In this document: positions 33,657-51,944 of the stretch, one piece after another
How positions within the stretch are numbered: the first letter of the stretch is position 1
Layout: each line of letters begins with the position of its first letter
Source: Nitrospirota bacterium
GTDB taxonomy: Bacteria; JACPQY01
Reading direction: 5' to 3'
Length of the DNA: 64,000 nt
NCBI GenBank assembly: GCA_016180645.1
Contig: JACPAV010000005.1
Span: forward strand, 62,001 to 126,000
Translations under genes and position numbers: made by a program
The notes under the pieces: model-generated
What the model was told of the DNA's origin: nothing
The model's input: the letters and a program-made list of their open reading frames with translations, nothing else
The model's database searches: none

Positions 33657-33668
33657 CGCGACGGGGTG

Positions 33669-34577
33669 CTAAACCGCGGCGGCCGCCGGCCGCCGTGCCC
33701 GCTGCTCGAGGAATCCCAGAAGAAAGCTCTCCACCCGGTCCGAGGTCCGCAGCCGCGTGTACTCCACACCATTGGAGTAACAGATCTTCCGGAGATGCTC
33801 GCAGAACTCCAGAAACGCCGCCTGATACTGCCGCCGGATGGCCTGGGGGTAGCTGAGCACCCTCAAGGGTCCCTCCAAGCCGACGAATTCCGTCCGTTCG
33901 TGGAAAGGGAAGGATTCCTCGCTCGGGTCCAGCACGTGAAACAGGACCACATCTCCCCTGACCTGCCGAACCAGGGCCACGGCCTTTTCAAGATCCGCCG
34001 GCTCCATGTCCAGAAAATCCGAAATGAGAATCATCAGACTGTGCCGTCGCGCAACAGGCAGGAGGTCATTCAGAGTCTCAATCAAAGTCGTTTTGCCCTC
34101 AGGCATGGCCTCATCCAGCAGCGTGTACAGTATCTTGAGGTGCCCCGACCGCGCCTTGGGCGGCACAAACGACTTCCCCTCCGAATTGAACACGTGCACG
34201 CCCACGGCATCCCCCTGGCTGAGCAGGAGAAACGCCAGCGATGACGCGAGCGTGGCGGCGTGCTGGAACTTCGTTCGGCCCGTGGTGCCATAGTCCATCG
34301 AGCCGCTGGCATCCACAAGAAGGTACGCTTGGAGATTGGTCTCCTTTTCAAAACGCTTCACATAGTACTTGTCCGTCCTGCCGAAAATCTTCCAATCGAG
34401 ATATTTCAGATCATCCCCCGGCGTGTATTCCTTGTGCTCCCGGAACTCGACAGAGGCGCCGAAATGCGGACTCTGGTGCACGCCCGCCAGGGTGCCGATG
34501 ACCCTCGTGCGGCTGCGCAAAACGACCGCGCGCAATCTTTCCAACTTCGCCGGCTCGATCAGGACGTTCGGCATCAA
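33669..34577 (-). CDS. DUF58 protein
   Basis: G.HQSPHFGASVEF.EH..Y.PGDD...LDWK and DASGSM. Confidence 0.92.
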   Translation of the reverse strand: MMPNVLIEPAKLERLRAVVLRSRTRVIGTLAGVHQSPHFGASVEFREHKEYTPGDDLKYLDWKIFGRTDKYYVKRFEKETNLQAYLLVDASGSMDYGTTGRTKFQHAATLASSLAFLLLSQGDAVGVHVFNSEGKSFVPPKARSGHLKILYTLLDEAMPEGKTTLIETLNDLLPVARRHSLMILISDFLDMEPADLEKAVALVRQVRGDVVLFHVLDPSEESFPFHERTEFVGLEGPLRVLSYPQAIRRQYQAAFLEFCEHLRKICYSNGVEYTRLRTSDRVESFLLGFLEQRARRPAAAAV

Positions 34578-34596
34578 TGGTCCCCCATGCTCTTGG

Positions 34597-34707
34597 GACG
34601 CAGGCTGGTAGGCGCGGGCTTCAGCCCGCGTCTTGGACGCAGGCTAAAGCCTGCGGCTACCGGGAGAGGAAGGGATCTCCTGGTAGGCGCACCCTTTAGG
34701 GTGCGTC
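34597..34707. repeat. REP family A cluster
   Basis: gtaggcgcgggcttcagcccgcg / cgcaggctaaagcctgcggctac / gtaggcgcaccctttagggtgcg. Confidence 0.88.
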
Positions 34708-34730
34708 CTTTGCCCAATCGATTCATGCCC

Positions 34731-36188
34731 TTACCCCCAGAAGTAGAAGGCCGTCATGACGAGCGGCGCGTAGACGAAGAAATAGATCAGGCAGTAGCCC
34801 ATGATCTCGCGGAACTCGATCCGCGAAAAGCCGAGGAGCGGGATTGCCCAGAACGGCTGGATGATGTCCGTCAGCGTGTCCCCCCAGGCATAGGCCAGAA
34901 CGGTCCTGGGATACTCCACCCCAAGCTTGTGGGCCGCATCCATGATGTACGGCGCCTCGATGGCGAATTTGGCGCCTCCGGACGGTACTATATAATTTAG
35001 TACTCCGGAGTAGACCAAGGTGAAGAACGGAAACCGCTCGGGCGAGGAGAATGCCGTGAACGCGTGGGCCAACACCTCCTGCAAGCCGGACGCCTTGATC
35101 ACGCCGAAGATGCCTGAATAGAGCGGGAACTGGATCAGCACCCCCCAGATGGCTTTCGATCCCTCTTCCGCTTCCGCCAGGAAGCTCCGCGTATCGCGGT
35201 GCAGGGCGAGGGACACGGTGAGAAGCGCCATGATCACCGTGTTGAGGTCGATGGCATTCAGTCCCCTCGCATGGAAGAGGACTCCCAGATAGACGACGCC
35301 GAGCGCGGCCAACGTGCGAATGACGAGGCCCGAACGATCCAGCCTCTCCGCCGGCGTGCGGGGAGCCGTTTCAGATTTGAGATGTGAGATTTGAGATCCG
35401 TCGGGGACGACGCCATCGGCGGGGGCGGCGCCAGGAGGGTTTGGCCGTCCCGCGACCGGCTGGATGCCAGCCATGGATGGTGCGGTACCCCGCCCTACGG
35501 GCCGACCAGGATGGGAGGCCGCTGAAGGCGAGGTGCCACCAAGCGGGGCGGGCACGGGTGATTTCGGATGGACCAGAACACCCACGATGGGAAGGACACC
35601 CACGACGGCCACAGCCAGAAGAATGTTGAACGGGCTCAGCGTCGTTTGCGTAATGGGAATCACTCCGATTTGTTTGACGAGAAAGTGGTCCGCCGTGGCT
35701 ACAAGAAGCGGCGCCGAGCCCGACAAGCCGGCGTGCCACACCGCCCCCAAACCCAGGTACGCCGAGGCCACCATCAGGCGGTAGTCCGTGTCTTTCCTGT
35801 GCTTGGATACCTCGCGCACCAGCAGGGCGCTGCCGATCAAACTGAGACCCCAGTTGGCCAGCGCCAGCAGCATGGAGGTCAGGCTGATCAAGAGAATGGC
35901 CGATTTCGGGCCTCGCGGCATCGCGGCGAGTGTTTTTAGAGCCCGATTGAAGAGAGGCGTGGACGCCAGGAGATGCCCGCTGATCATGATGAGGCACATT
36001 TGGGTGGAGAACGAGAGGAGCGCCCACAGGCCATCTCCCCACCCTCGAACAAGATCGAGCCACGGTGTTGGCGTTAGACCCTTCGCCAGGCCAAAGACCA
36101 CGAGCGTCAAGGCGAACACAATGACAAAAGAATCCGGCACCCAGCGGGTGCTCCAGCGGGTCAGCGCATCAGCGAGCTTGGGAAGCAT
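34731..36188 (-). CDS. atoE: Short-chain fatty acid transporter with a repeat-derived loop insertion
   Basis: RWVPDSFV, DYRLMVASAY, GLSGSAPL, QFPLYSGI, PSGG and QPFWAIP. Confidence 0.9.
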   Translation of the reverse strand: MLPKLADALTRWSTRWVPDSFVIVFALTLVVFGLAKGLTPTPWLDLVRGWGDGLWALLSFSTQMCLIMISGHLLASTPLFNRALKTLAAMPRGPKSAILLISLTSMLLALANWGLSLIGSALLVREVSKHRKDTDYRLMVASAYLGLGAVWHAGLSGSAPLLVATADHFLVKQIGVIPITQTTLSPFNILLAVAVVGVLPIVGVLVHPKSPVPAPLGGTSPSAASHPGRPVGRGTAPSMAGIQPVAGRPNPPGAAPADGVVPDGSQISHLKSETAPRTPAERLDRSGLVIRTLAALGVVYLGVLFHARGLNAIDLNTVIMALLTVSLALHRDTRSFLAEAEEGSKAIWGVLIQFPLYSGIFGVIKASGLQEVLAHAFTAFSSPERFPFFTLVYSGVLNYIVPSGGAKFAIEAPYIMDAAHKLGVEYPRTVLAYAWGDTLTDIIQPFWAIPLLGFSRIEFREIMGYCLIYFFVYAPLVMTAFYFWG

Positions 36189-36240
36189 CGTGGCGCGATT
36201 CTAGCCTCAACCCCCGCCGTTTTCCACGCACGGGCCCCGC

Positions 36241-36268
36241 TTGACCTCGGGAGGGCGGACGATACAAT
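36241..36268 (+). promoter_or_regulatory. Sigma70-type promoter, leaderless
   Basis: TTGACC-16 nt-TACAAT, 6 nt before GTG 36275. Confidence 0.65.
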
Positions 36269-36274
36269 GGATTC

Positions 36275-37414
36275 GTGGATTGGAACCTATCGCCGGAGCA
36301 ACAAGCGCTCGTCGAAACCGCCCGCCGTTTCTCCCGACAGGAGATCGCCCCCAAGGCCGCCGCGTTCGACCGCAACTCCGAGTTCCCGCGGGATCTGATC
36401 AAGAAGGCTTGGGAACTGGGTCTCATGAATGAACTGATCCCCCAAGAGTGCGGCGGCACCGGATTCGGCATGTTCGACTCCTGCCTCATCACCGAGGAGC
36501 TGAGTTGGGGATGTTCCGGCGTCACGACCTCTATCATGGTCAACAACCTCGGCCTCCTGCCCATCATGGTGGCGGGCACACCCGAGCAGAAGAAGAAGTG
36601 GCTCGAACCCTTCACCCGCGAATTCCGCATCTCCGCTTTTTGCCTGACCGAGCCCAACTCCGGCTCCGACGTCGGCGGCATGCAGCTGCAAGTGCGGCGC
36701 TCGAACGGCGACTACGTTTTGAACGGCACCAAGCGTTTCATCACCAACGGCGGCGTGGCGGATCTGTACACCACCTTCGGCACGCTGGACAAAAGCCAAC
36801 ATCACCGCGGCATCGCCGCCTTCGTGGTGGACGCACACTCCCCCGGCATTCGCGTTGGGAAGAAAGAAGACAAAATGGGCCAGCGGGCCTCGAACACCAC
36901 CGAGGTGATCTTTGAGGATTGCGTGGTGCCCGCCTCCCAGCGGCTCGGGGCCGAGGGCGAAGGATTCAAGGTGGCCATGCGGACCTTGGACCGCAGCCGG
37001 CCCTGCATCGCCGCGCTCGCCGTCGGTCTCGCCCAACGCGCACTGGATGAATCCCTGGCTTACGCCAAGGAACGCAAACAATTCAACACCGCTATCGCCG
37101 AGTTTCAGGGCATCCAATTCATGCTTGCGGACATGGCGAAGGACCTCCATGCCGGGCGACTCCTCACCTGGCAGGCGGCCATGCTCATCGATCAGGGGCA
37201 GGACGCGGCCCTGTACTCCGCCTACGCCAAGTGCTTCGCCACCGACATGGCGATGAAGACCACCACGGACGCCGTCCAGATTTTCGGCGGCTACGGTTAC
37301 ATGAAGGACTACCCCGTGGAGAAGCTCATGCGGGATGCCAAGCTCATGCAAATTTACGAGGGAACCAACCAAGTCCAGCGGATGGTCATCGCGAGGCAGC
37401 TCCTCCGACAATAG
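36275..37414 (+). CDS. Acyl-CoA dehydrogenase
   Basis: LTEPNSGSD, NGTKRFITNG and RDAKLMQIYEGTNQ. Confidence 0.96.
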   Translation: MDWNLSPEQQALVETARRFSRQEIAPKAAAFDRNSEFPRDLIKKAWELGLMNELIPQECGGTGFGMFDSCLITEELSWGCSGVTTSIMVNNLGLLPIMVAGTPEQKKKWLEPFTREFRISAFCLTEPNSGSDVGGMQLQVRRSNGDYVLNGTKRFITNGGVADLYTTFGTLDKSQHHRGIAAFVVDAHSPGIRVGKKEDKMGQRASNTTEVIFEDCVVPASQRLGAEGEGFKVAMRTLDRSRPCIAALAVGLAQRALDESLAYAKERKQFNTAIAEFQGIQFMLADMAKDLHAGRLLTWQAAMLIDQGQDAALYSAYAKCFATDMAMKTTTDAVQIFGGYGYMKDYPVEKLMRDAKLMQIYEGTNQVQRMVIARQLLRQ

Positions 37415-37421
37415 AGCGCCG

Positions 37422-38564
37422 ATGGCCAATCGAAGGCTCGACGCGTACTATCAGAAAGACGACTTCACCGACTTCATCGAGCGCATCCCCCTCTACTCTC
37501 CGGCCGAGATGTTCGATCTCCTCGGTAAGAAAGGGTACAAAGGGCAGGACGGCGCGCGCAAGACCGTTACTCTCTTCGCCTATCGCCACATCCGCCGGAT
37601 CAAGCAACTCTACATCGAAGGCCTGAAGCGCAACCAGCTCCCACCCAAGTCCAACACGCTCCTCGTTGGGCCGACGGGATGCGGAAAAACCTATCTCATT
37701 GAACTTCTTTTTCGGGAGATCCTGAAAATCCCCACCGTGATTATCGACATCACGGGATTCTCGGAGACCGGTTACGTCGGCCGCGACCCGATCACGGTGC
37801 TCACCTCGCTCATCTACTCTTCCGGCGGCGATCAGAAAAAGGCGGCCATCGGGATTGTTGCCCTCGATGAATTCGACAAGCTCGCCACGACGCAAAATTC
37901 CGCCATGTTCGACGGACAGGGGACGACGAAGGATGTTGCCGGCTACGGCGTCCAGAAGGAACTCCTGAAACTGCTCAGCCCCACGATCGTGGACGTGCCG
38001 CTCGAATACAACAATACGACCTACAGCCCACACATCCGGATGTCCACCCAGGACATCGCGTTTATCGCGTGCGGGGCATTCTCGGGACTCAAGGGCATCG
38101 CATCGCGAAACGGGCTCCGCTCCAAAATGGGATTCGGCGGTCTACCGGAGAAGAAGGACGGATCGAGAAAGATCTCCTACCGGATGAATGAGAGCGAGGT
38201 CAACGAGATCCAGAATTTTCTGAACTACGGGTTCCTGCCGGAGCTCGTGGCCCGATTTTCACGGATCGTCACTCTTGACCCCTTGGAGGAAGAGGTCCTT
38301 CGCGAGATTCTTTGCGACAACGTGATCCGGCGTTTCGCCACGGAGTTCAAGGCGGAGGGAATTTCACTTCGGGTGCAGGAAGACGTCCTCGATCTGATTG
38401 TCGAGCGCGCCGTCAAGCGTGAAACAGGCGCCCGCGGACTGGAGGCGGAGTTCACGCGCATCATCGAGGATGTAGCGTTCGAACACTTCGGAAACTCCCA
38501 CGGGGAAGTGGTGGTGCAAACGAAGGGCGGTGAAGTCGTGGCGAATCTGAAGCCATCCGCCTAA
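37422..38564 (+). CDS. ClpX-like AAA+ ATPase lacking the zinc-finger domain
   Basis: KSNTLLVGPTGCGKT, SETGYVG, LDEFDK, GVQKELLK, MGF loop, GFLPELVAR and TGARGL. Confidence 0.85.
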   Translation: MANRRLDAYYQKDDFTDFIERIPLYSPAEMFDLLGKKGYKGQDGARKTVTLFAYRHIRRIKQLYIEGLKRNQLPPKSNTLLVGPTGCGKTYLIELLFREILKIPTVIIDITGFSETGYVGRDPITVLTSLIYSSGGDQKKAAIGIVALDEFDKLATTQNSAMFDGQGTTKDVAGYGVQKELLKLLSPTIVDVPLEYNNTTYSPHIRMSTQDIAFIACGAFSGLKGIASRNGLRSKMGFGGLPEKKDGSRKISYRMNESEVNEIQNFLNYGFLPELVARFSRIVTLDPLEEEVLREILCDNVIRRFATEFKAEGISLRVQEDVLDLIVERAVKRETGARGLEAEFTRIIEDVAFEHFGNSHGEVVVQTKGGEVVANLKPSA

Positions 38565-38591
38565 TTCGGTAGCAGTAGAGTTTATTAGTTG

Positions 38592-38692
38592 GTGCGTCTG
38601 ACAGAATGCGTAGGGGAGGGTCTTCAGACCCTCCCGACAAGAGGGAGCATCTGAAGATGCTCCCCTACGGATCAGCATTCTGTTAGAGGCTC
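38592..38692. mobile_element. MITE-like element, second copy, enclosing a family-B REP doublet
   Basis: GTGCGTCTGACAGAATGC ... GCATTCTGTTAGAGGCTC. Confidence 0.65.
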
Positions 38693-38715
38693 TTGATCCG
38701 GGATACGGTCACCGA

Positions 38716-40281
38716 TTATAGATCCCAGCTCAGAACCGGGTAGCGATTCGCAAGAACCTCGTTCACCCGGCCGCACGGCGTCGTGTGAGGCGCCGCCCGA
38801 ACCCGGTCGGGGTCTTCCTGGATTTCATTCGCAATCAGGTTCATCGAGTGCGCGAACCGGTCGAGCGTGGCTTTGCTCTCGCTCTCCGTCGGCTCGATCA
38901 TCATCGCGCCGGGAACGACGAGTGGGAAATAGATCGTGGGCGGATGGAACCCGAAGTCGATGATCCGTTTGGCGATATCCAGCGTCGAAACCTGCGCCTG
39001 TTTCTGAAACCGGTCCGAGGCGATGAACTCGTGCATGCAGGTATCCTCGTAGGGCACGTGGTACCGATCCTTCATCCTTTGCTTTAGATAGTTTGCATTA
39101 AGGACGGCTCTTTCCGATATTTCCTTCAGACCCTCAGACCCATTGCTGAGGATATAAACGTAGGCCCGGACGAGGATCATGAAATTGCCGTAGAACGACC
39201 GGACCCGTCCCACCGAATCGGGCAGGCCGAAATTGAGCGAGTACCGCCCCTCTTTGAGCTGGATCCTGGGGACGGGCAGGTACGGGGAGAGCTTGTTTTT
39301 CACTCCCACCGGTCCCGCGCCCGGTCCACCCCCGCCGTGGGGCGTGGAGAAAGTCTTGTGGAGGTTGAACTGAATGACGTCGAAGCCGAGATCGCCTGGC
39401 CGCGCTTTCCCCAGAATCGCGTTCAGGTTCGCGCCGTCACCGTACACGAACCCGCCCTTCTCATGCACGATTTCGGCCACTTTCAGGATCTCCTTCTCGA
39501 ACAGGCCCAGGGTGTTCGGGTTGGTGATCATGATCGCAGCCACTTTGTCGTCCACCACCTTGCGCAGGACCTTGGGATCGATCATTCCCCCGTTGGATTT
39601 GAACTCCTGGGCCTCGAATCCGGACATGCTCGCGCTCGCCGGGTTCGTGCCGTGGGCCGTGTCCGGCAGCAGGACTTTCGTCCGCTTCTCCCCCTTCTTT
39701 TCAAAATATCGCGCAATCAGTTTCAGGCCCAGAAACTCTCCATGCGCGCCGGCGCTGGGCTGGAGCGTCACCTGATCCATCCCGCTCACTTCCTGAAGAT
39801 ACTTTTCCAAGTCGAACATCAATCGGAGTGCGCCCTGCACGCGCGATTCGGGCCAGTAGGGATGCAGTCCGGCCAACCCGCGGCGGGACGCGATGGATTC
39901 GCAGATTTTCGGGTTGTACTTCATTGTGCACGAGCCGAGCGGGTACATGCCCGTGTCCACCGAGAAGTTCAGCTTGGAGAGGCGGGTAAAATGGCGCACG
40001 ACCTCCGACTCCGCCAATTCCGGAAGACACGCCGGCTCTTTGCGCAGAAGATCGTCCGGAATCGGATCGACTTTTCCGGAAACGGCGGTCTTCGGAAGAA
40101 GCGTGCCGCGGTGACCTGCACGGGACATCTCGAACAGCGTCGGCTCGATGCCCGGCTGGGACAGCGAATCATTCTTTCGCGGCTCTTCCGCTCCCGGCTT
40201 CGGCGTAAGGACGCTCACCCCACCACCTGTCTGAGATTTGAGATCTGAGATTTGAGATTTCAGAGGCGGTGGCGGGGTCAT
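38716..40281 (-). CDS. gcvPB: Glycine dehydrogenase subunit 2
   Basis: YPLGSCTMKYNP, AHGTNPASA and NLHKTFSTPHGGGGPG. Confidence 0.96.
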   Translation of the reverse strand: MTPPPPLKSQISDLKSQTGGGVSVLTPKPGAEEPRKNDSLSQPGIEPTLFEMSRAGHRGTLLPKTAVSGKVDPIPDDLLRKEPACLPELAESEVVRHFTRLSKLNFSVDTGMYPLGSCTMKYNPKICESIASRRGLAGLHPYWPESRVQGALRLMFDLEKYLQEVSGMDQVTLQPSAGAHGEFLGLKLIARYFEKKGEKRTKVLLPDTAHGTNPASASMSGFEAQEFKSNGGMIDPKVLRKVVDDKVAAIMITNPNTLGLFEKEILKVAEIVHEKGGFVYGDGANLNAILGKARPGDLGFDVIQFNLHKTFSTPHGGGGPGAGPVGVKNKLSPYLPVPRIQLKEGRYSLNFGLPDSVGRVRSFYGNFMILVRAYVYILSNGSEGLKEISERAVLNANYLKQRMKDRYHVPYEDTCMHEFIASDRFQKQAQVSTLDIAKRIIDFGFHPPTIYFPLVVPGAMMIEPTESESKATLDRFAHSMNLIANEIQEDPDRVRAAPHTTPCGRVNEVLANRYPVLSWDL

Positions 40282-41609
40282 CGCGCTCCCCCCAGGAGAT
40301 TCGCCGCCGCTTCGATTCCCTCCGCCGATGATTTTTCAGTGGCGCACATCAGCAGGGCATCCTGCAATTCGGGATAGTATTTCCCCAGTGGGAGGCCGGG
40401 GACGATCCCGGCCGCTTCCGCATCCTCCATCACATCGCGAACAGGTCGACGCGGTTTCACCACAAACTCATTGAAGTACGGCCCGTTGAACACGGCCGCC
40501 GCCCCGCCTTTCCGGGTCACTGCAGCTCGAAGAGCCGAGGCCATGCGGTGGTTCAGCTCCGCCAGCTCACGGAGCCCATGGGGTCCCAGCAGCGCGAGAT
40601 GGACCGTCGCCGCGATGGCGCACAGCGTTTGGTTCGTGCAGATGTTGGACGTGGCACGCGCCCGGCGGATGTGCTGTTCCCTCGTGGCCAGCGTGATCAC
40701 AAAAGCTCTCTTCCCTGTCTTGTCGATCGACGCGCCGATGAGGCGGCCGGGCATGTCGCGCACAAACTCCTTGCGTGTTCCGAGGAAACCCACGTAGGGG
40801 CCTCCGAAAGAGAGGGGAAGCCCCAGCCCCGCGGCCTCTCCGGCCACCGCGTCCGCTCCGCATTCGCCCGGGGACCGGAGCATGCCCAGACTGACCGGCT
40901 CGTTCACCACGGTAACGAGCAGTGCCTTCCGGTTTCCGATCAAGGCCTTGATCTTTTCGAGACGTTCGACAACTCCGAAGAAATTGGGGGATTGGACGAC
41001 CACGCAGGCCGTGTCGTCCGACAAGGCCTTGGTGATCGCCTCGAGATCCACGGAGCCGCTTTCTGTCCACCCCACCTCCGTCAAGCCGCCGCCGAGATAG
41101 GTCCGTATGACCTCGCGGTATTCAGGATGCACGGACCTCGCCACGATCACTTTTTCCTTTCTCGAGGCCCGCCGCGCCAGGAGTACCGCCTCCGCCGCCG
41201 CAGAGGCACCCTCATATAATGAAGCATTCGCGAGGTCGGTCCCCAGAAGCCTTCTCATCATCGTTTGAAACTCGAAAAGCGCCTCCAACGTGCCTTGGCT
41301 CACCTCGGGCTGATACGGGGTGTAGGCGGTGTAGAACTCGGATCGCCCAATGATGGCATTCACAACGGAGGGAATGAAATGATCGTAGGCGCCGGCGCCG
41401 AGGAAATGATGCGCGGGTGGCCGATTCTGCGCCTCGATCGCGTCGAAATGGGCCTCCATCTCTTGTTCGGACAGCGGGCCGGGCACGAGCAGGGGCTTGG
41501 ACAGCCGCGCCTCCTTCGGGATGACCGTAAAGAGTTCGTCAATGGACTTGACGCCGATGGCGGCCAGCATCTCCTCCGTCTCGGAGGGACTGGAAGGGAT
41601 GAATCTCAT
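40278..41609 (-). CDS. gcvPA: Glycine dehydrogenase subunit 1
   Basis: FYTAYTPYQPEVSQG, NASLYEG and TREQHIRRARATSNICTNQ. Confidence 0.96.
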   Translation of the reverse strand: MRFIPSSPSETEEMLAAIGVKSIDELFTVIPKEARLSKPLLVPGPLSEQEMEAHFDAIEAQNRPPAHHFLGAGAYDHFIPSVVNAIIGRSEFYTAYTPYQPEVSQGTLEALFEFQTMMRRLLGTDLANASLYEGASAAAEAVLLARRASRKEKVIVARSVHPEYREVIRTYLGGGLTEVGWTESGSVDLEAITKALSDDTACVVVQSPNFFGVVERLEKIKALIGNRKALLVTVVNEPVSLGMLRSPGECGADAVAGEAAGLGLPLSFGGPYVGFLGTRKEFVRDMPGRLIGASIDKTGKRAFVITLATREQHIRRARATSNICTNQTLCAIAATVHLALLGPHGLRELAELNHRMASALRAAVTRKGGAAAVFNGPYFNEFVVKPRRPVRDVMEDAEAAGIVPGLPLGKYYPELQDALLMCATEKSSAEGIEAAANLLGGAR

Positions 41610-41617
41610 TCGAACAT

Positions 41618-41687
41618 GACGCACCCTAAAGGGTGCGCCTACCAGGAATTCCTTTGTTCCCGGGTAGCCGCAGGCTTCAGCCTGCGT
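41618..41687. repeat. REP family A pair between gcvH and gcvPA
   Basis: cgcaccctaaagggtgcgcctac ... gtagccgcaggcttcagcctgcg. Confidence 0.88.
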
Positions 41688-41733
41688 GCCCCGCATTGGC
41701 CACGGATGACTGACCCCCGACCCCTTCCGCGGA

Positions 41734-42171
41734 TCACTCCTCCTCCCCTTCGCCTTTCTCGATCTCCTCCTCAACAAATGCGGCGTACTCCACCGAATTC
41801 ATCAGCTCATCCAGTTCCGCGGCATCGCCCAGCGAAATCTTGATGAGCCAGCCGTCGCCATACGGGTCCTGATTGAGCAGGTCGGGCGTCTCTTTCACAT
41901 CCAGATTGACTTCCACCACCTTGCCGCTCACGGGAGCGTAGAGATCGGACACCGACTTCACCGATTCCACGAACCCAAACGACTCGCCCTTCAGGACTTC
42001 CTCGCCCTCTTCCGGAAGCTCCACGTAAACGATATCGCCCAGGGCATCCTGCGCGTAGTCGCTGATCCCGACGGTCACGATGCCGTCGTCCTCCTTGCGG
42101 CCCCATTCGTGCTCCCTCGTGTACTTCAAGTCCTCGGGGAATTCGAAGCCGGTTCCTTTTTTCTTCTTCAT
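41734..42171 (-). CDS. gcvH: Glycine cleavage system H protein
   Basis: YTREHEW, GISDYAQDALGD, ESVKSVSD (lipoyl Lys) and DPYGDGW. Confidence 0.96.
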   Translation of the reverse strand: MKKKKGTGFEFPEDLKYTREHEWGRKEDDGIVTVGISDYAQDALGDIVYVELPEEGEEVLKGESFGFVESVKSVSDLYAPVSGKVVEVNLDVKETPDLLNQDPYGDGWLIKISLGDAAELDELMNSVEYAAFVEEEIEKGEGEEE

Positions 42172-42186
42172 CGGGGCCTCCTTAAC

Positions 42187-43569
42187 CTACGCTTTCTTCG
42201 TTCCGGGCGTCACGAAGGGTACTTTCGCGATTTCGGCTTCGACCTCTTTGGCCCGGATGCGGATGCGAATGTGTGCGCCCTCCCAACCGGATCGGGTAGC
42301 CGCAGGCTTCATGCCTGCGTCCTGCCCCATCCCGGGAGCCGCGGGCTTTACGCCCGCGTCCGAAGACGCACCCGTAAAGGGTGCGCCTACCGGCGAGCTC
42401 GTCAGGAGGGCCAGTCCGATCGATCGCTTGAGGACCGGCGAGAAGCATCCGCTGGTGATCAGGCCGATCGCCGTCGAGGGCGATCCCGTCGCTACCTCAT
42501 AGTGATCGCGAATCATACCGTCCTTTTTGAGGGCGACACCGCACAGCTTCGCCGGCGGCTTCTCCGCCCTCTTTTGAATGGCCTGCTTACCCACAAACGA
42601 TTCCTTTTTCAAGTCAACAAATCGAAGCAGTCCCGCCTCGACCGGACCGATCTCCTTTGAAATCTCATGACCGTAGAGCGGATAGCCCATTTCGATGCGG
42701 AGGCTGTCGCGCGCGCCGAGACCGATGGGCGCGAGTCCCTGCGGCTTGCCGGCCTTGAGTAGCGCATCCCACAGCGGCTCCGCCACTCCATCCGGCAGAT
42801 AGAGTTCGTAGCCATCCTCGCCGGTGTAGCCGGTCCGGGTGACCAGAATGCTCTCGCCTTTCCAATCCACTGTGGCGCAACCGAAATACTTCAGGCCGGT
42901 GGCGATCGGGCCCAGCACGCTGCCGACAATCGCAGCCGCATGGGGCCCCTGCACGGCGAGCTGAGCCGTCACATCGCTGAGATCTTTCAGCGCCACAGCT
43001 CCATTCAGGCTCCCGGTAGCCGCAGGCTTAATGCCTGCGTCCGGTTCAATCCCGGTAGCCGCAGGCTTTAGCCTGCGCTCAAGACGCGGGCTGAAGCCCG
43101 CGCCTACCAGCCCTGCGTCCGAAGACGCACCCATCAACCCGCCGTGGCGGGTAAAGGGTGCGCCTACCGGCCCGCGTCCATAGCTGGCCGCGTGTTCCTT
43201 GAGCCATTTCCAGTCCGCCTCGCGGTTCACGGCGTTCACGCAGATGTAGTATTCCGCGTCTCCCAACTGGTAAATGATCAGGTCGTCAATCACCCCGCCC
43301 TTTTCATCGCAGAAAAGGCCGTAGAGGGCGCGGCCGGGCGTCAGCTTCTCAAGATTATTGGTGAAGAGGGATTGGAGAAGAGTGTGAGCGCCGGGGCCTT
43401 TCGCCTCGAAGCGGCCCATATGGCTGATATCGAACAGGCCCGCCTTCTGACGAACGGCGAGGTGTTCTTCGAGGATGCCCGAGTAATACACGGGCATGTC
43501 CCAGCCTGCGAAGTCGATCATTCGCGCCCCGGCCTTCCTGTGCCACGCATACAGCGGCGTTTTTCGCAT
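42187..43569 (-). CDS. gcvT: Glycine cleavage system aminomethyltransferase with two in-frame REP-derived insertions
   Basis: FAGWDMP, GLFDISHMG, AVQGP, RTGYTGEDG.E and GLGARDSLRIE. Confidence 0.96.
   Translation of the reverse strand: MRKTPLYAWHRKAGARMIDFAGWDMPVYYSGILEEHLAVRQKAGLFDISHMGRFEAKGPGAHTLLQSLFTNNLEKLTPGRALYGLFCDEKGGVIDDLIIYQLGDAEYYICVNAVNREADWKWLKEHAASYGRGPVGAPFTRHGGLMGASSDAGLVGAGFSPRLERRLKPAATGIEPDAGIKPAATGSLNGAVALKDLSDVTAQLAVQGPHAAAIVGSVLGPIATGLKYFGCATVDWKGESILVTRTGYTGEDGYELYLPDGVAEPLWDALLKAGKPQGLAPIGLGARDSLRIEMGYPLYGHEISKEIGPVEAGLLRFVDLKKESFVGKQAIQKRAEKPPAKLCGVALKKDGMIRDHYEVATGSPSTAIGLITSGCFSPVLKRSIGLALLTSSPVGAPFTGASSDAGVKPAAPGMGQDAGMKPAATRSGWEGAHIRIRIRAKEVEAEIAKVPFVTPGTKKA
42296..42390. 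repeat. Family-A REP block inside gcvT, in frame
   Basis: Three hairpins encoding [32 protein letters not shown]. Confidence 0.92.
43016..43167. repeat. Family-A REP block inside gcvT, in frame
   Basis: Four hairpins encoding [51 protein letters not shown]. Confidence 0.92.
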
Positions 43570-43644
43570 GGGTCCCCATTAGTATCCCGCCCCCGCCCGA
43601 TGTCAAGCGTTCCGCAGAAGACGCGCCCGTTCTGCCCAAATCCG

Positions 43645-44254
43645 GTAGCCGCAGGCTTTAGCCTGCGTCCGAAGACACACCCATAAAGGGTGCGCCTACC
43701 AAAAAAACGCGCGAATGTTACAATCGCCCGGTGCGGAGGATACGGGAGCGGAAACATCGCCTACCTCCGGATTCCTACCGCGGACAGGCGGCAGCCAGCT
43801 TCACCCTCTGTATCCAAGATCGCCGATCTATTTTCAACAATCCATTCCCCGTTCCGCGATTCGTGGACATCCTCATGAATTCGCTGCAGAGGCATCTGTG
43901 CGATTCACCAGTGTACCTTTTCATGCCGGACCACATGCATCTGGTGCTCCAGGGAACCTCCGCGCAGTCTGACCTCCGGCAGTGCGTGGTCAGTTTCAAA
44001 CAAGCAAGCGGATTCTGGTTCAGACGAGAGATGGCTGGGATCCGGTGGCAAAAAGACTTCTACGACCACATCCTTCGAAAAGATGAAGATTTGGTGAAAC
44101 ACCTGCGTTATGTCCTCGACAATCCAGTGCGCAAGGGGCTCGTGACGGATTGGAGGGCCTATCCGTTCAAGGGTTCAACGGTTTTCGATCTTGACTCTTG
44201 GTAGTCGCAGGCTTTATGCCTGCGTCCAAGACGCGGGCTGAAGCCCGCGCCTAC
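43645..44254 (+). mobile_element. REPtron: RAYT gene flanked by inverted REP doublets
   Basis: REP doublets at 43645-43699 and 44201-44254 bracket a Y1 HUH transposase gene. Confidence 0.88.
43731..44204 (+). CDS. REP-associated tyrosine transposase (RAYT/TnpA-REP, Y1 HUH family)
   Basis: FTLC, FMPDHMH (HUH), WQKDFYDHILR and YVLDNPVRKGLV. Confidence 0.92.
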   Translation: MRRIRERKHRLPPDSYRGQAAASFTLCIQDRRSIFNNPFPVPRFVDILMNSLQRHLCDSPVYLFMPDHMHLVLQGTSAQSDLRQCVVSFKQASGFWFRREMAGIRWQKDFYDHILRKDEDLVKHLRYVLDNPVRKGLVTDWRAYPFKGSTVFDLDSW

Positions 44255-44276
44255 CAAGAACGTGCCAAGAACAGAA

Positions 44277-47200
44277 TCAGGGTAAATTTATGACGGGGAC
44301 GGGGGTGGATTTGTTCGCGGTGGTTCCGTCCCCAAGCTGACCGAAGACATTGTACCCCCAGCATTTGACGGTGCCGTCCGACTCGAGGGCGCAGGTGTGG
44401 GAGTTGCCGTTGGTCACGGCCACGGCCCCCGTGAGGGTGGATACCGATACCGGCGTCAGCCTGTTTGCCGTCGCACCATCACCAATTGCGCCGGACCCGC
44501 CGCTCCCCCAACACTTGACCGTGCCGTCCGACAGCAGCGCACAGGTGTGGTAGCCGCGTCCTGTGATGGAGACCGCATTCGTGAGACTGGTTACCGCGAC
44601 GGGTACCGACGAGTCTGTTCCGGTCCCATCGCCCAGCTTGCCGCCGGAATTCGCACCCCAGCAACGAGCTGTGCCGTCGTTGAGGAGGGCGCAACTGTGC
44701 ATGCCGCCGCCGGAGATCGAGACGGCGCCCGTCAGCGTGGAAACGGCCACGGGTGTGCTCTTGTTTGTGCTCGTTCCATCCCCCAGAACGCCATATCCGC
44801 CCCACCCCCAGCACCAAGCCGAGCCATCGGAGAGGACTGCGCAGGTGTGGCTGTCGCCGAGGGCGGTGGCGATGACGCCGGTCAGCGTGGAAACGGCCAC
44901 GGGCGCGCCGCGATTTGTTGTGGTTCCATCTCCCACCTGCCCCTGGCCATTTTCGCCCCAGCAGGCGACGGTGCCGTCGGTCACCATGGCGCAGGTGTGC
45001 GTGTGGAGGGCGGCCACGGTCACGGCGTTAGAAAGGACGGAAACGGTTGTAGGAGTCGGTCTGGGCGTGAACGATCCATCGCCGAGTTGGCCGTAGGAGT
45101 TGCTCCCCCAACATTTGATCGTCCCATTCGAGAGAAGGGCACACGTATGGTACGTCCCTTCGGCGAGGGCGGTGGCGTTCGTCAGGCCGGAGACGGGTAC
45201 CGGAGCGGTCCGATCCGTCGTGGTGCCGTCGCCGAGTTGGGAGGAATCGTTCTTGCCCCAGCACTTCGCGGTCCCATCCGAGAGCAGCGCACAGACGTGA
45301 TCGCGCCCAGCGGAGAGGCCTTCGCGGAAGGGGCGGGCGGGGGCGCCGGAGGCGGTGGATTCGTGGAGGCGGGGGAGTTTCACGCCCATCGGACCGGCGG
45401 GCATGGAGACGGCCACGGGCGTCGTCTTATCCACCGTCGTCCCGTCCCCAAGCTGACCGTAGTTAGAGCGCCCCCAGCATTTCACCGTGCCGTCGGAGAG
45501 GAGGGAACAGGTGTGAGCCCAGCCCCCCGACACGGCCACACCATACGAGAGGCCGCTTACGGTCACAGGGGTCGATTTGTCCGCCGTCGTCCCGTCCCCA
45601 AGCTGACCGTAGCCATTGTACCCCCAGCATTTGACCGTGCCGTCGGAGAGGAGGGAACAAGTGTGAGAGGCGCCCCCCGTGACGGCGACGGCGCCCGTGA
45701 GGGTGGAGATGGCCACGGGGGTCGATTTGTCCGCCGTCGTCCCGTCCCCAAGCTGACCGTTGCTATTGGACCCCCAGCATTTCATCGTGCCGTCGGAAAG
45801 AAGGGAACAGGTGTGACCGTCGCCCCCCGCCACGGCTACAGCCGTGCTCAGCACGGACACAGCGACCGGTATCGATTTGTTCGCCGTCGTACCATCCCCA
45901 AGCTGACCGACGTTATTCCACCCCCAGCATTTCACCGTGCCGTCGGAAAGAAGGGAACAGGTGTGAGAGGTGCCCCCCGCTACAGCCACACCCCCTGAAA
46001 GTGAAGACACGGGGATGGGCGTCAGGCGATTGGCGGTCGTCCCGTCCCCAAGCTGACCGTAAAGATTGTTCCCCCAGCATTTTACCGTGCCGTCCGAAAG
46101 CAGGGAACAGGTGTGAGAGAAGCCCCCCGCGATCCCGCTGGCGCCGGAAAGGGACGCCACCGGGACAGGCGTCCACTTATCGGCGGTCGTCCCGTCCCCA
46201 AGCTGACCGTAGAGATTGTACCCCCAGCATTTCACCATCCCGTCAGAACGAAGGGAACAGATGTGAATGCCGCCCCCCGCCACGGCGACAGCACCGCTGA
46301 GCGTCGAGACGGTCACGGGAGTCGATTTATTGGCCGTCGTACCATCCCCAAGCTGACCGTTGCCGTTGTTCCCCCAGCATTTGACCGTGCCGTCGGAAAT
46401 AAGCGAACAGGTGTGGTTGCCGAGGTGGGTCGTGATCGCCTGGGCGACGCCTATGGTGGACCACGTGAGGGCGGATTTTTCGACGGTGTTGGATTCGACG
46501 TTGAGGGCTTCGTCTCGCGCGCGGACGCGATAGTAGACTTTGCTGCCGGGCGAGAGCGAGCCGTCGTTGTACGTTGTGGCGCCGGGGGAGGTCGTGAACG
46601 TCACGCTCCACGTGGTGGTGCAGTAGTTGGGCGTTGTGGCCCGGCAGATTTGGTAGACGATGTTGGCCGGCGCGCTCACGTTGTCCGACGCGGCGCTCCA
46701 CGCGAGATCCACGTTTGTTGCCGACGTGGAGGTGGCGGAGACAAGGCCGCCGAACGTGGGAGCGGACCAATCGTTCGTCCACGAGACATCCAGATTCCCG
46801 CTGACACCCTGCGTGTTGCCGGCGGAATCGGTGCAGTCTATGAAGCGGTTATAGGCCGAACCGTCCGTCGCCGCCCCCGTGATGGTGCAGAGCGAGGTGG
46901 ACGCGCAGGTATTGGCCATCGAGCCGTACACCACATCGGCCGTATCCCACCTGCAGGCGACCGCATCTCCCGCCGAGATCGAGATGTCCGTGTTCGAATC
47001 GTTGACCGTGTCGTAGAAAGGACTTCCGGAGTCGCCCTCGATGTTGGCCACCGTAAGCAGAGGAGGCGTGCTGTCCTCGGTGAACGTCACGCTGCTCGCC
47101 GAACAAGGAGAGGCGTTGCCCGCGGCATCCGTCGCCGTTGCGTAGAAAGTCGTGCTTGAATTGTCGCTGACGGTAGCCGAAAGGCCAGGCGTGTTGAACG

Positions 47201-49646
47201 CGGACGCCGTGCCGGTGGCGGCCACGGCGGAGGTACAGGAGCCGTTGGTGTAGACTTTCACCGTCGAAGACGCCTCGGCCGTACCCTTGATGGCAGGGCT
47301 GTTGTTGTTGGCCGGTGACGGGGGAGTGACGCCCAATCCGGTCGGACCCGATGGGGCGGCGATGTCGTTCGTTTTGCTTGTCGCACCGCTCTGATTGCCC
47401 GCGGCGTCGGTAGCGGTGACATAGACCGTCGCGTACAGGTTGCCTCCAATGGACAGGGCCGCGAAACTCCCGTCGGCTCCGGCGGTGCCCGATACGATCA
47501 GCGTGGTGAGAAGACCATCGGCCCAGATCTTGACGGTGGACGCAGCCTCACAGGCTGCGGCTACCCCGGAGACGGTGTCGCTTGAACCGGGGGCATTCTG
47601 AGTAACCGTCAGCTTCGCAGGGTCCGGCGCGGCGGGGGCGGTGGTATCCGCGGGGGTGCACACGTTCCCCTCGTCGGTCGAGCCATCGCAATCGTTGTCC
47701 TTCTTATCGCAGATCTCGGTGGTGGCTGCTCCCGCCACGGCATCGCACAGCGTGCCCGTGCCATCCGTCTTGCAAACGAAAGTTCCGGCCTTGGCGCACT
47801 CGCCCACGCCGGCTGAACATGCCTGCCCCTTGTTCGTGAAGTCTTCGTCGGTGTTCCCGTCGCAGTCGTTGTCGGCGCCGTCGCAGGATTCGGCGCCGGA
47901 CGCATGACGCTGGACGCAAGCAAGAACTCCATTCGAGCAAGCTTGGGTGCCTTCGGCGCACACACCCGGGCTGCCGGTGCTGCAAGAAGCAGAGGGGAGA
48001 TCCTCGTCCGTCTTCCCGTCGCAGTCGTTGTCCTTTCCGTCGCAGATCTCGGCGCTGGGGGCGGAGGGGACGGCGGAACAGCGTGTGCCCAAGCCATCCG
48101 CCTTGCAGATAACCGTTCCGCCGGCCTGGCAGGCGCCGATGCCGACCGTGCAGGGTTGGCCGAGGGAGGCACTGGTAGCCGCGGGCTTTATGCCCGCGTC
48201 CGAGGACGCACCCATAAAGGGTGCGCCTACCAAGCCTGCGTCTGAAGACGCACCCGTAAAGGGTGCGGCTACCCAGTCCTCATCCACAAGCGTGTCGCAG
48301 TCGTTGTCCTTGCCATCACAGATTTCAGCGGAAGGATTGCACGCGGACAGGACGGTGAAGGTGACGGTGGCGGGCGTCTGGTCCCGATTGCCCATGGCGT
48401 CGGAGGCGAACACCTTGAGGGAGTGTTCGCCCGACGCGGGACGCAGGACGTAGGACGCGGGGCAGGAAGTGAATTCGAAAGCATCCAGCGAGCAGCGGAA
48501 GGCACAGAAGGACTCGTTGCACGATAGAGCGAATGCGATGTCTTGTCCTGCTTGCGCCTCGCGCCTTGCGCCCAGCGCCTCCGCCGATACGAAAGTTTCC
48601 GGCGGCGTAAGATCAATCTCCTTGAGCTCGATCTTCACCGCGGCGGGAGGCGCAACGCCCGCGGCTTTGAAGTCATCAATGACTTTCGTTTCCAGCTTGG
48701 CGGCCAGGGATTCGAAAGCCTGTTGCACCTGCTCCTGCGTGGGCTTTTTGTCAGAAGCCGCATCCGAGGCGATGGCGATGGCGTCGGCCAAAGACGCAGG
48801 CGTAAAGCCTGCGCCTACCGCCTCGCTCCCAATGATCGCCGCCACCTCGGTGAGGGTGGAGACGCCGTTGCCGTCCAGATCGGGCAGCTCCACCTCGTTG
48901 AGGTCGATGGAGGTTTCTTCAATTTCAATTTGGAACAGCGGTAACCCCTCACCCCCACCCTCTCCCTCAAGGGGAGGGGGAGTGGATGGGTCACCCGTCG
49001 CAGGCGGGGGCAGCTTCATCTTGATGGTTGTCTTGACTTCGACGAGGGGAACATCCTGATGCCGGCCGGGACGCACGCGCGTGTGGATGTCGTTGGCGCC
49101 GTCGCGGGCGGATTTCTTGGGCAAAAGGAACGTTACCTCAAAAGCAAATGCAAGCTCCCCCTCACCCACGCCCTCTCCCCCAATCTGGGGGCGAGGGGAG
49201 GATTTGGTAGGCGCGGGCTTCATGCCCGCGTCCGGGGACGCACCCTGAAGGGTGCGCCTACCAGGATCTTGACGCATCGAGACACCGCGCACACCGCCAC
49301 GCACGCCTGATGCTTCCGCCCCGCGAACGCCACCGCGAACTCCGCCGACCACATCGCCGCGCACCCCGCCCCGAACGCCTCCGCGGACTCCCTCCGCTAC
49401 GATCTCTCCGTTCACTTCGATGTCCGCCACGAGGTCGTCCGCCGCGGCCACGCCGTTCAGCGCCGCCGCGATTTCGGGGGAGAGAGGAAGGGAGACGTCC
49501 AGCGGCACGCCGTCTTCGGCCGCCGCGGGCGCGGTCAGTTTCAACGCATCGCGCTGGCAGGAGGCCAGGAGGCCCGTGAGGAGTGAGGCGTGAAGAGTGA
49601 GGTGAGAGACGGAACGGAAACGAGAACCGGAACGCCTCCAAGACAT
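44277..49646 (-). CDS. Large predicted lipoprotein: Cys/Asp-rich CDGKDNDCD repeats, Ig-like/FN3 domains and many RCC1 repeats; carries in-frame REP insertions
   Basis: Lipobox-like [16 protein letters not shown]-type repeats; ATDAAGN motifs; [23 protein letters not shown] repeats. Confidence 0.88.
48175..48272. repeat. Family-A REP block inside the RCC1-protein gene, in frame
   Basis: Encodes [33 protein letters not shown]. Confidence 0.9.
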
Positions 49647-49732
49647 GGGCAGATTGTCAACCTCGCGTCAATCAATGTCAAGGTCAACAACCGCCCGTGC
49701 CGTCGCGTTGTGTGATCTAGGTCATAATACAA

Positions 49733-49910
49733 GACGCGGGCTGAAGCCCGCGCCTACCAAGAGCAGGACGACTGCCTCCCCGGTAGCCGCAGGCTTCAGC
49801 CTGCGTCCGAAGCGTGTAGGGGAGCAGCTTGAGCTGCTCCCTCTTATCGGGAGAGTCTGAAAACCCTCCCCTACGCATTCTGTTAGACGCACTAAAGGTC
49901 CTCCCCTACG
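49733..49910. repeat. Mixed REP family A and B cluster with one MITE-like end (49875-49892)
   Basis: cgcgggctgaagcccgcgcctac; gtagccgcaggc..; gtaggggagcagc..; gcattctgttagacgcac. Confidence 0.85.
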
Positions 49911-49974
49911 GGAGGATCAAGGAATGAACATTGGTCTCGATACGGAGCGAACGCAATGTTACAATTCCGCGACG

Positions 49975-51654
49975 ATGAACCGGATTCGTTTCGCCCTCAT
50001 CCTCCTTCCCCTCTTCGCACTGACCAACCCGCCACTCGCAATTTCCCAATCCGTATCTCCCGAGGGCACTCGCGGGGTGTGGCACGTGCAGAGCGCCGAC
50101 CGCCTCGATCTCGGCCGGTGGGTTCCATCCCTGACGGGCGGCTATTTCTCACAAAAAGACCTCGTTCTCGCCGCGCAGGATCACTCGGCCATCCTCGGCA
50201 CCGCGGGATTCACGTTCCGTCCCGGCGACGAATCGGCCTTCCGACGCACCGAGGCATCCGTCGTCTGGGAGGGACGCTCCTACCGCGTGAACGACCGTGA
50301 AGTAGGCAGCAAGGATTCCGTCGCCGCATTCGGCGATCCTCGCCTGCGACTCAAATGGGAATGGCTTCGCGCCTCACCCTTCCACATGGGCCTCGGCCTC
50401 GAAGCTCGCGCATATTCAAAGGAGGAATCGGGTGGCATGGCCTTCTCCACGATCTCACCCGCCGCTTCGATATTGAACACACTCCGATGGTCGCCGTTCG
50501 CTTTCCATCTCACGGCAGGATATCGGCTCGATCAGTCTGAAAAGGCATTCCAGAGTCTCTCACCCTATCCCAGCAGGACCAATCGCACCGCGCAAGGCAT
50601 CCGCGGCGATAACGTTTGGCTCGGGGGCGTGGCGCTGGAACTCACCGCAAGCCGGTGGATCCAACCTTTCGTCGAATGCACCGCCGAAATCGACACGGAC
50701 GGCAAGGCCTTCGACAGCAACGGCGATCGCGTCAAGGTCACCACCTCCCAGAATCCGATCCGCCTTACGCCCGGCGCGCGCCTGCAAATCGCGAGCGCCC
50801 GCGTCGTGCTGGCGGGCGACCTTGGAATCCTCACCGCGCGATTCCCGCGGGAGGAGACGGATGTGCCACAATGGACCGCCGGCTTGAGTTTCCAATACGT
50901 CCGCACACCGCGCCATCGAGAGTTCGCCGTCGTGACCGGCCGCGTGCTCGATCAACAATCGCTCGAACCGCTCACCGCCTCCTCCGTGCTCATCGAAGAT
51001 GAATCCGACGAGCGAATCACCTTGGACGTGGATCCCCGCACGGGCGAGTTCCGGAACGATCAAGTCCCACCGGGTCCGCATCGGATCACCGCCTTCCGGC
51101 CCGCGTACAAGTCGAAGAGCTACGACCTCGCCCTCGAGGCCAAACGCCAAGAGCGCGTGGAAATCGTCCTCGAACCGGAGGAAATCGTCATTCCCGAGGA
51201 AGCGCCGGCCGCCAAGGAGGAGGAGGCTCCCCCTCCCCCGCTGAAGGTCGTGCTGACCAAGGAGAAAATCGTCATCAACCAGCGGATCCAGTTCTATTTC
51301 AATTCCGTCGACATCAAGCCTGTGTCCATGCCGATCGTTCACGAGGTCGCCCGGATCATGTCGGAGCATCCGGAGGTGCGGCTCGAAGTGCAAGGGCACA
51401 CGGATCCCACGGGCGCGGAGGACATCAACGAACTTGTTTCCTGGGCGCGCGCGGAAGTCGTCTATCATCACATGGTGCTTCTCGGCGTCGATCCCGCAAG
51501 GCTCACGTACAAAGGCTACGGCACACAGCGACCGATTGCGCCGAACGAATCTCAGGAGGGACGCAAGCTGAACCGTCGCGTCGAGTTTGTGGTGCCGACG
51601 GAGGGGGAGTCGGCCCTCCCGGCCCCTCCGCCCTCCGCACCTCCGACGCCCTAG
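49975..51654 (+). CDS. OmpA-family outer membrane protein (beta-barrel, carboxypeptidase-regulatory-like domain, OmpA C-terminal domain)
   Basis: Signal peptide; VQGHTD, GYGTQRP and NRRVEF; TGnTACAAT 9 nt upstream. Confidence 0.88.
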   Translation: MNRIRFALILLPLFALTNPPLAISQSVSPEGTRGVWHVQSADRLDLGRWVPSLTGGYFSQKDLVLAAQDHSAILGTAGFTFRPGDESAFRRTEASVVWEGRSYRVNDREVGSKDSVAAFGDPRLRLKWEWLRASPFHMGLGLEARAYSKEESGGMAFSTISPAASILNTLRWSPFAFHLTAGYRLDQSEKAFQSLSPYPSRTNRTAQGIRGDNVWLGGVALELTASRWIQPFVECTAEIDTDGKAFDSNGDRVKVTTSQNPIRLTPGARLQIASARVVLAGDLGILTARFPREETDVPQWTAGLSFQYVRTPRHREFAVVTGRVLDQQSLEPLTASSVLIEDESDERITLDVDPRTGEFRNDQVPPGPHRITAFRPAYKSKSYDLALEAKRQERVEIVLEPEEIVIPEEAPAAKEEEAPPPPLKVVLTKEKIVINQRIQFYFNSVDIKPVSMPIVHEVARIMSEHPEVRLEVQGHTDPTGAEDINELVSWARAEVVYHHMVLLGVDPARLTYKGYGTQRPIAPNESQEGRKLNRRVEFVVPTEGESALPAPPPSAPPTP

Positions 51655-51661
51655 CCCATTT

Positions 51662-51805
51662 GTCATTCCCGCGAAAGCGGGAATCCAGCGTGTAGGGGAG
51701 CAGCTTTAGCTGCTCCCTTTTCTTGGAGCACTGGTCCCAAGAAGGGAGGACCTCAAGGTCCTCCCCTACGGCTCCCAGGAAGGCTAGGCTGAAGCCCGGG
51801 CCTAC
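51662..51805. repeat. Cluster of three palindrome types: ATTCCCGCGAAAGCGGGAAT, a family-B doublet and a degenerate family-A REP
   Basis: Directly visible hairpins. Confidence 0.8.
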
Positions 51806-51906
51806 CAAGCAGTGCTCTTCGATCCCGGAAACCGCATCCCCGCCCGACAACCGCCATCTACTCGGCCCCGATGTCCCGGCAATTGTGACGTGCATCACAA
51901 TATTCC

Positions 51907-51934: not shown

Positions 51935-51944
51935 TGCGCCCAAC

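Follow-up and report, generated by a model that had tools for sequence, protein, structure and literature searches.

The window, that is, the whole 64,000-nt stretch of the source genome (G000) that was analyzed, holds an intact gcvT-H-PA-PB operon next to a divergent RAYT (TnpA_REP) gene (Table 1). gcvT is the first gene of the operon and is separated from the RAYT gene by 161 bp. No match to a sigma-70 promoter or a terminator was found between window positions 43450 and 44400. At the gcvPA/gcvPB junction (40230-40262), we also noted a short tandem repeat of the translated type SQISDLKSQ, from a family of 46 members, which may lengthen the N-terminus of GcvPB or be intergenic. The RAYT product scored 88 bits against NF047646 (cut-off 80) and matched PF01797. 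It carries the motifs DHMH, WQ and YVLDNP, which include the expected HUH and catalytic Tyr motifs, and its core is free of REPs. The gene is bordered by a REP dimer on each side, and over 57 nt the 3'-side dimer shares 93% identity with the central dimer in insert 1 of gcvT. A sequence-only reading of this DNA had claimed that gcvT carries two stop-free, in-frame blocks, built from the same GTAG-REP hairpins as are found on either side of the neighboring RAYT gene. Both the blocks and the identity of the neighboring gene were borne out.

Table 1. Coordinates of the features discussed (window positions unless a contig of G000 is given)
Feature	Position	Strand	Description
gcvT	42187..43569	-	460-aa open reading frame
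Insert 1	43006..43188	-	61 codons net, residues 128-188
Small GC hairpin	43137..43152	.	nested in the first REP loop of insert 1
Insert 2	42286..42393	-	36 codons net, residues 393-428
gcvH, gcvPA, gcvPB	38716..42171	-	each exceeds its NCBIfam cut-off
REP pair	41620..41686	.	between gcvH and gcvPA
RAYT (TnpA_REP)	43731..44204	+	157 aa from a putative GTG start
REP dimer, RAYT 5' side	43645..43700	+	layout as in the dimer of insert 2
REP dimer, RAYT 3' side	44200..44255	+	overlaps the RAYT stop codon
REP cloud	25290..61875	.	13 family-A clusters at most 20 kb from the RAYT gene
Intergenic REP cluster	34591..34705	+	matches insert 1 best genome-wide
Three in-frame REP inserts	48175-48272, 48795-48818, 49207-49261	-	all within the large gene with RCC1 repeats that adjoins the RAYT gene
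Eight-unit REP array	55789-56090		holds the best-matching dimers for the RAYT 5' flank
Six paralog gene starts	G000:C13:52930, C28:66949, C28:96021, C44:847, C63:20540, C65:2		REP dimer in a loop

Two REP stacks and the enzyme around them

In the AlphaFold model, insert 1 lies between helix 113-130 and strand 193-196, and insert 2 lies in the C-terminal barrel with strands 382-389 and 433-438 on either side. Viewed codon by codon, the REP core of insert 1 (43015-43167) encodes residues 135-185 and that of insert 2 (42295-42390) residues 394-425. The resulting lengths of 51 and 32 aa agree with the earlier estimate; the net inserts relative to the ortholog in genome G001 are larger (61 and 36). 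Both inserts are stop-free and in frame, and they bring 97 extra residues into an enzyme of roughly 365 aa. In insert 1, a REP that holds a nested mini-hairpin is joined by a truncated arm, a complete dimer of the type seen at the RAYT 3' flank and one additional unit. A second nested GC hairpin of the same type was found at G000:C28:28423, and about 50 related mini-palindromes occur across the genome. Insert 2 consists of a dimer and one extra unit in the layout of the RAYT 5' flank, with one GTAG foot mutated. The folding z-scores of the inserts ranged from -4.7 to -6.4.

Comparison with G001, which belongs to the same family and was the only other genome of the same phylum compared, revealed exactly two gaps in GcvT, of 61 aa (128-188) and 36 aa (393-428). 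gcvH, gcvPA and the aligned part of gcvPB had no gaps of 4 or more residues. Ortholog alignment and mapping on a structural model had been proposed as checks, and they placed both gaps in predicted low-confidence loops. Equally long, similar loops in relatives, named in advance as counter-evidence, were not found, both loops being short and free of the inserts in all 117 aligned homologs of alignment A2. The span W121-A205 covers 85 residues here and 19-34 in the 117 homologs, and the span I384-R439 covers 56 here and 18-29 there. Alignment A2 holds 117 of the best 150 hits; among the 33 omitted, 11 longer ones were compared pairwise, and the REP peptide was absent from all of these. At the site of insert 1, P0020 has about 21 residues of unrelated sequence. 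The nearest protein found, P0001, is 64% identical, has 375 aa and lacks the inserts. Scans of genome contigs (14 loci) and metagenome contigs (21 loci) gave no gcvT locus above ~50% identity, and no close insert-free gcvT allele was found among the homologs and contigs scanned.

The GcvT product passed TIGR00528 with 328 bits (cut-off 236) and NF001567 with 392 bits (cut-off 300). In the profile search, the model matches formed two stretches divided at insert 1, and the HMM and PDB alignments were interrupted at residues ~130-189 and beyond 392. As had been stated from the sequence, the GcvT motifs around the inserts are intact. Residues M51, D96, Y248, E255 and R287 of the product appear to correspond to the folate-site residues M56/D101/Y197/E204/R233 of human GcvT (PMC9551070), as matched by motif and spacing rather than by direct alignment, and none of the 21 columns that are invariant in the 118-sequence alignment A2 is lost. 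The core shows no apparent acceleration of evolution, its mean identity to 37 outgroups being 0.434 compared with 0.431 and 0.432 in two insert-free relatives. In the AlphaFold model, 349 of the 460 residues had a pLDDT of at least 90, and values below 50 were confined to the coil segments 141-187 and 402-418. The inserts are predicted to be disordered surface loops, and their low pLDDT is to be expected in any case because the aligned sequences provide no cover there. The model superimposed on the T-protein 1WOO with a target-normalized TM-score of 0.95, and a fold search gave T-protein structures up to 0.96. The equivalog match, the putative folate-site residues, the predicted fold and the gcvTHP operon are those of an aminomethyltransferase, and the enzyme is likely still to work.

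The load of 97 added residues might suggest that the inserts crippled GcvT and that the gene is a young pseudogene, since a very recent loss would leave no trace in the sequence yet. However, the frame is open across at least eight REP units or arms, the invariant columns are kept at an evolutionary rate that is not raised, and the operon is intact. A second close gcvT is also lacking: the 97%-complete genome contains one close GcvT match, and the next gcvT-like match is 27% identical. A pseudogene seemed very improbable in view of these features.

Misjoining of repeats within gcvT during assembly was examined with contigs assembled from four runs of groundwater DNA (X1-X4); the runs come from one study, and two of them may be the source of the assembly. 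In X1-X3, three or four overlapping contigs tile gcvT with 0 differences, and in X4 the tiling has gaps and one difference. As to whether the DNA spans the inserts, the gene is tiled and no insert is skipped, but no single contig covers a whole insert because the contigs break within the repeats. Unique gcvT sequence nevertheless passes straight into REP sequence at both inserts in independently assembled contigs, and the depth is even. The contigs of the four runs contained no joint that skips an insert, that is, no empty allele, and no length variants of the inserts, although contigs drop rare variants. The sole joint tabulated at 97% likeness connects two REP copies (42320 to 43084) in one run, with a side of 25 letters. 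An assembly artifact is therefore almost negligible as an explanation.

Distribution and reading phase of the REP family

Each unit of this family (family A) consists of a GTAG foot, one nucleotide, a 7-bp stem and a 4-5-nt loop, 23-25 nt in all. The genome contains 293 units in 173 clusters, with 72 facing pairs, compared with 0 in a 1.5-Mb shuffled control. According to our own gene model (3,793 genes, 87% coding), 130 clusters are intergenic, 31 (18%) are internal to genes and 12 lie at gene ends. The counts are lower bounds because the strict scan misses known units, namely the first REP of insert 1 and one 3'-flank unit; two of the internal hits (C19 and C64) may be weak. The GTAG foot with its palindrome, the high copy number with dimers, the position beside a RAYT gene and the mostly extragenic location are features of GTAG-type REPs and REPINs.

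Cluster density was 21.2 per 100 kb in non-coding DNA and 0.76 in coding DNA, which is an approximately 28-fold depletion. About 13% of random coding insertions are expected to stay open in frame, and comparison of this expectation with the observed densities indicated that copies in coding DNA are about four times scarcer still than frame alone would predict. Forward units in genes occupied phases 0, 1 and 2 in 31, 2 and 0 cases, whereas 213, 167 and 3 of 216 intergenic units were stop-free in these phases. After paralogs were collapsed by hand, phase 0 was used at 16 of 18 sites (p=0.003). Dimers of 56 nt were found in 14/17 intragenic and 6/37 intergenic cases, paralogs included. The phase bias suggests that copies are filtered according to the peptide they encode. 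The phase 1 peptide contains about twice as much Arg and three times as much Cys as the phase 0 peptide. We also considered whether the favored phase is simply the most disorder-prone one. For this family this was not borne out, as phases 0 and 1 had similar scores on the scale used.

The ends of each stack fold close together, which would favor removal of the stacks at the RNA level or their bypass by the ribosome, with a protein of normal length as the outcome. However, the net inserts are stop-free and made of whole codons. Together with the bias of intragenic copies toward one phase, this suggests that filtering acts at the level of the translated product. An Rfam search across window positions 38000-50000 gave no match either, and we regard such removal as highly improbable.

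We annotated 20 REP-bearing genes, 18 with copies of this family and 2 with copies belonging to a second RAYT. Many encode large RCC1, Ig or NHL repeat proteins, and others encode CheA, CheW, 4-alpha-glucanotransferase, an oxidoreductase, an ABC exporter and a C25 peptidase. The proposal that a RAYT-linked REP family sits in frame at predicted surface loops held for gcvT and about 20 other genes. In three unrelated genes, for the oxidoreductase (G000:C13:69323), CheA (C33:16101) and 4-alpha-glucanotransferase (C44:77185), the REP dimer is nested in one and the same second repeat, which suggests that a composite element moved as a unit. A separate REP family of 375 units belongs to the second RAYT of the genome (G000:C25:35056-35460), and the intragenic copies of this family are mostly read in phase 1. 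Two further stretches, G000:C65:2-5839 and C47:1673-8458, hold many inserts each from several families. Within the window, a REP pair separates the RfaE-like adenylyltransferase from the isoprenylcysteine-methyltransferase-like domain that shares its open reading frame (4667-5779, -); the frame may be a true fusion or a read-through over an intergenic REP. A short-chain fatty acid transporter (34731-36188, -) has a low-complexity insert of ~60 residues past residue 210 that splits the family match. A CRISPR-repeat-like repeat of roughly 37 nt occurs in 31 copies on two contigs of the genome (e.g., C16:34311).

Six paralogous large repeat proteins carry a 57-nt REP dimer at an identical position, in a Cys-flanked loop. 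Their inserts are 89-98% identical (235/246 at third positions), compared with 43-68% in the flanks (167/286). Since the dimers are near-identical within diverged flanks, the intragenic copies would be renewed or conserved as DNA. Sixteen further copies of the Cys-flanked motif are empty or have shorter fills, some from other repeat families. From these patterns we infer either repeated insertion at tolerant sites or later homogenization. The likeness of the six dimers, together with the very stable predicted RNA hairpins in gcvT, could also mean that the hairpins are kept for a function, such as tuning the mRNA stability, processing or translation of gcvT-H-PA-PB, or serving as RAYT-cut recombination sites that vary the loops. 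This seems improbable, because the inserts are missing in all homologs examined, including the same-family genome, and because REPs are so strongly depleted in coding DNA. The mutated GTAG foot in insert 2 and the lack of length variants in the contigs of the four DNA runs, where rare ones would be dropped, also argue against it.

REP copies around the RAYT gene

The clusters nearest to the RAYT gene are far more numerous than expected, with 10 within 10 kb (0.73 expected) and 13 within 20 kb (1.47 expected). The gene lies in the densest 10-kb window of the genome, and at most 6 clusters were found in 3,498 other 20-kb windows, which were sampled from contigs of 20 kb or more. Three of the 10 nearby clusters sit in the adjoining RCC1 gene, whose paralogs carry inserts at the same sites. 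With these and the two RAYT flanks removed, 5 clusters remained, compared with 0.73 expected (p=0.001). The best match was inside the cloud for 7 of the 13 cloud clusters (0.91 expected) and for 20.5 of the 35 cloud units (3.8 expected after correction for cluster size, 0/20,000 permutations). In contrast, 0 of the 160 clusters elsewhere had their best match within 20 kb, and units outside the cloud matched into it about as often as expected by chance (32.2 of 258, 30.8 expected). For both RAYT flanks, the best match lies inside the cloud. These relations suggest that the members of the cloud are related by local copying, which would explain the two hits on gcvT.

The intergenic cluster that best matches insert 1 is 8 kb away and 95% identical over 76 nt to its central part. 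The gcvT copy carries one base more than this cluster, and the gcvT frame is open. The final units of inserts 1 and 2 are mutual best matches, whereas the dimer of insert 2 has its best match on a different contig. The claim that the REPs multiply inside gcvT was consequently supported for the last units of the blocks but not for the dimers of either insert, which match copies elsewhere best. These matches suggest that the inserts may have grown stepwise at a resident REP. The spacer within the blocks is not unique to the gcvT locus, as a similar spacer occurs at G000:C18:14724.

The cloud is solid at the gcvT/RAYT locus but is not general. The motif occurs at least 10 times in 13 of 400 other genomes, of which 5 were searched for the RAYT and three loci were examined. 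It lies beside RAYTs that are 47-52% identical in the distant genomes G383 and G286. Among the five other RAYT loci checked, a cloud was found solely at G286:C183, with 9 clusters in 25 kb. The second RAYT of the source genome has 3 clusters compared with 1.44 expected, the G001 RAYT has two flanking clusters only in about 27 kb, the G383 RAYT has flanking copies only in 21 kb, and G286:C129 has a weak cloud of 4 clusters in 34 kb. At both G286 loci (L099 and L101; C129:14621 and C183:22153), a REP abuts the 5' end of the RAYT homolog, in frame with its conserved ERKHRLP start.

These comparisons leave a serious possibility that the loops are tolerated as proposed, but that the cloud is independent of the position of the RAYT gene. 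Any active donor cluster might copy nearby, or the RAYT gene might have entered a REP-rich region. This would overlap with the explanation given below and would replace only its last step. In its favor, a clear cloud is lacking at four of the five other RAYT loci, and some contigs are dense in REPs without a match to this RAYT query (C103 with 11 hits and C135 with 10 in G286, and C43 with 12 and C66 with 10 in G383). The neighbors of the RAYT gene also differ in G001, implying that it moved in one lineage. On the other side stand the lack of local best matches beyond the cloud in the source genome, the coincidence of the densest 10-kb window with the RAYT gene itself, and the best matches of both RAYT flanks inside the cloud.

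G001 provides a natural comparison, as a sister genus with the same REP motif (62 hits) and an orthologous RAYT (58% identical). Its gcvT is insert-free and apart from the RAYT gene, which is not on the gcvT contig, and 0 REPs were found across the 20 kb holding it. About 10 kb away from the G001 gcvT there is a longer gene resembling a Y1 transposase, which scores below the RAYT cut-off.

Known systems and the proposed origin of the inserts

The sequence-only reading had taken REPs to be extragenic by definition, which is wrong, and the novelty that it implied is not supported. Intragenic GTAG REPs were cataloged in 2013 (PMC3733652) and in-frame REPs within RAYT genes in 2018 (PMC6006769). 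Di Nocera et al. listed intragenic GTAG REPs in many species, with about 70 rows for Opitutus terrae, where the enzymes UvrA and PurL have double REP insertions. They also reported REP clusters of 43-82 aa in Thauera and Rickettsia, and one CGTC REP in a 974-aa 'glycine cleavage T' family protein (PMC3733652). As in their cases, where the hairpins occur singly, in pairs or in groups, the gcvT inserts are GTAG-footed hairpins translated in frame within an enzyme. In-frame GTAG REPs in enzymes were already known, and gcvT is a further example. However, the peptides VGAGF and VAAG of the gcvT REP family are not in their table, and here the target directly adjoins the cognate RAYT gene. In the passages of PMC3733652 consulted, we saw neither reading-phase bias nor any cloud of related copies analyzed.

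Group 3 REPtrons, or REPIN-RAYT systems of subclass 2.5 (PMC8266576, PMC6006769, PMC3116915), likewise combine a short Y1-HUH transposase with short perfect hairpins, a GTAG foot one base off the stem and mostly intergenic inverted dimers. Subclass 2.5 is marked by DH[LF]H, WQ, YI[VI]ANP, a length of about 151 aa and short REPs (PMC6006769). The length, WQ motif and REP type of our RAYT fit this class, while DHMH and YVLDNP depart from the motifs tabulated there, and the source lineage lies outside the Xanthomonads and Pseudomonads named for this subclass. According to bioRxiv 2021.07.10.451892, REPINs are extragenic almost without exception, and co-localized REPINs in SBW25 are no more common than chance (PMC3337134). 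In contrast, 18% of the clusters here lie inside genes, and a 40-kb cloud is present. Within tnpA_REP genes of subclass 2.4, Quentin et al. described in-frame REPs with a predicted position on the protein surface (PMC6006769). The gcvT case resembles theirs in the in-frame insertion at or beside a REPtron and in the predicted surface location, but the target there is the transposase gene and here a neighboring housekeeping gene. Other repeats fused into open reading frames were reviewed in PMC3184786. Among these, the Rickettsia palindromic elements (RPE) include RPE-1, a single 105-146-nt element, and the CGTC-type RPE-4 and RPE-6 (as summarized in PMC3184786 and PMC3733652). The gcvT REPs work like RPE, as mobile palindromes that add peptides to a conserved protein. 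They are not RPE, however, as their units are of the GTAG type, 23-25 nt long, stacked and linked to a RAYT.

Taken together, we consider it probable, at about three chances in four, that gcvT contains two stop-free GTAG-REP stacks which are translated as tolerated loops of a working enzyme, and which were laid down by the adjoining RAYT through repeated, mostly short-range copying. A REP dimer would first have landed in each of the two loops, and further units would then have joined at the resident REP to give stacks of 3-5 units. Selection would have purged copies that broke the frame or gave stops, leaving inserts of whole codons that encode peptides rich in Gly, Ala, Pro and Ser. gcvT may have been hit twice because it is central in the local cloud of REP copying. 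The insert peptides are likely neutral passengers rather than new functional domains. That the RAYT was the agent of insertion into gcvT is what we infer from these relations. GTAG hairpins in single-stranded form are recognized by RAYTs, which cleave at CT or CA and carry out strand transfer (PMC8266576), and REP doublets are capable of excision (PMC3116915). The spread of REPs by RAYTs in vivo is still described as an open question (PMC8266576).

A compact core enzyme can apparently take up 97 residues of repeat-derived sequence. More tentatively, and as a reading that is less likely than not, the RAYT may act preferentially in cis and seed a cloud of related REPs of roughly 40 kb. The surface loops of whichever housekeeping gene adjoins a REPtron would then fill progressively, and intragenic REPs would stay live and be renewed or extended, as in the six paralogous loops. 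Neither a RAYT-centered cloud of related copies nor a cis preference of RAYTs was found in the published work searched, which included few subscription papers. What the gcvT case adds is the frame filter, the contrast with the sister genus and the local cloud, the last of which makes a cis preference of a RAYT testable. Such a preference, if true, would provide direct genomic evidence on REP spread and would make REPtrons local makers of new protein loops.
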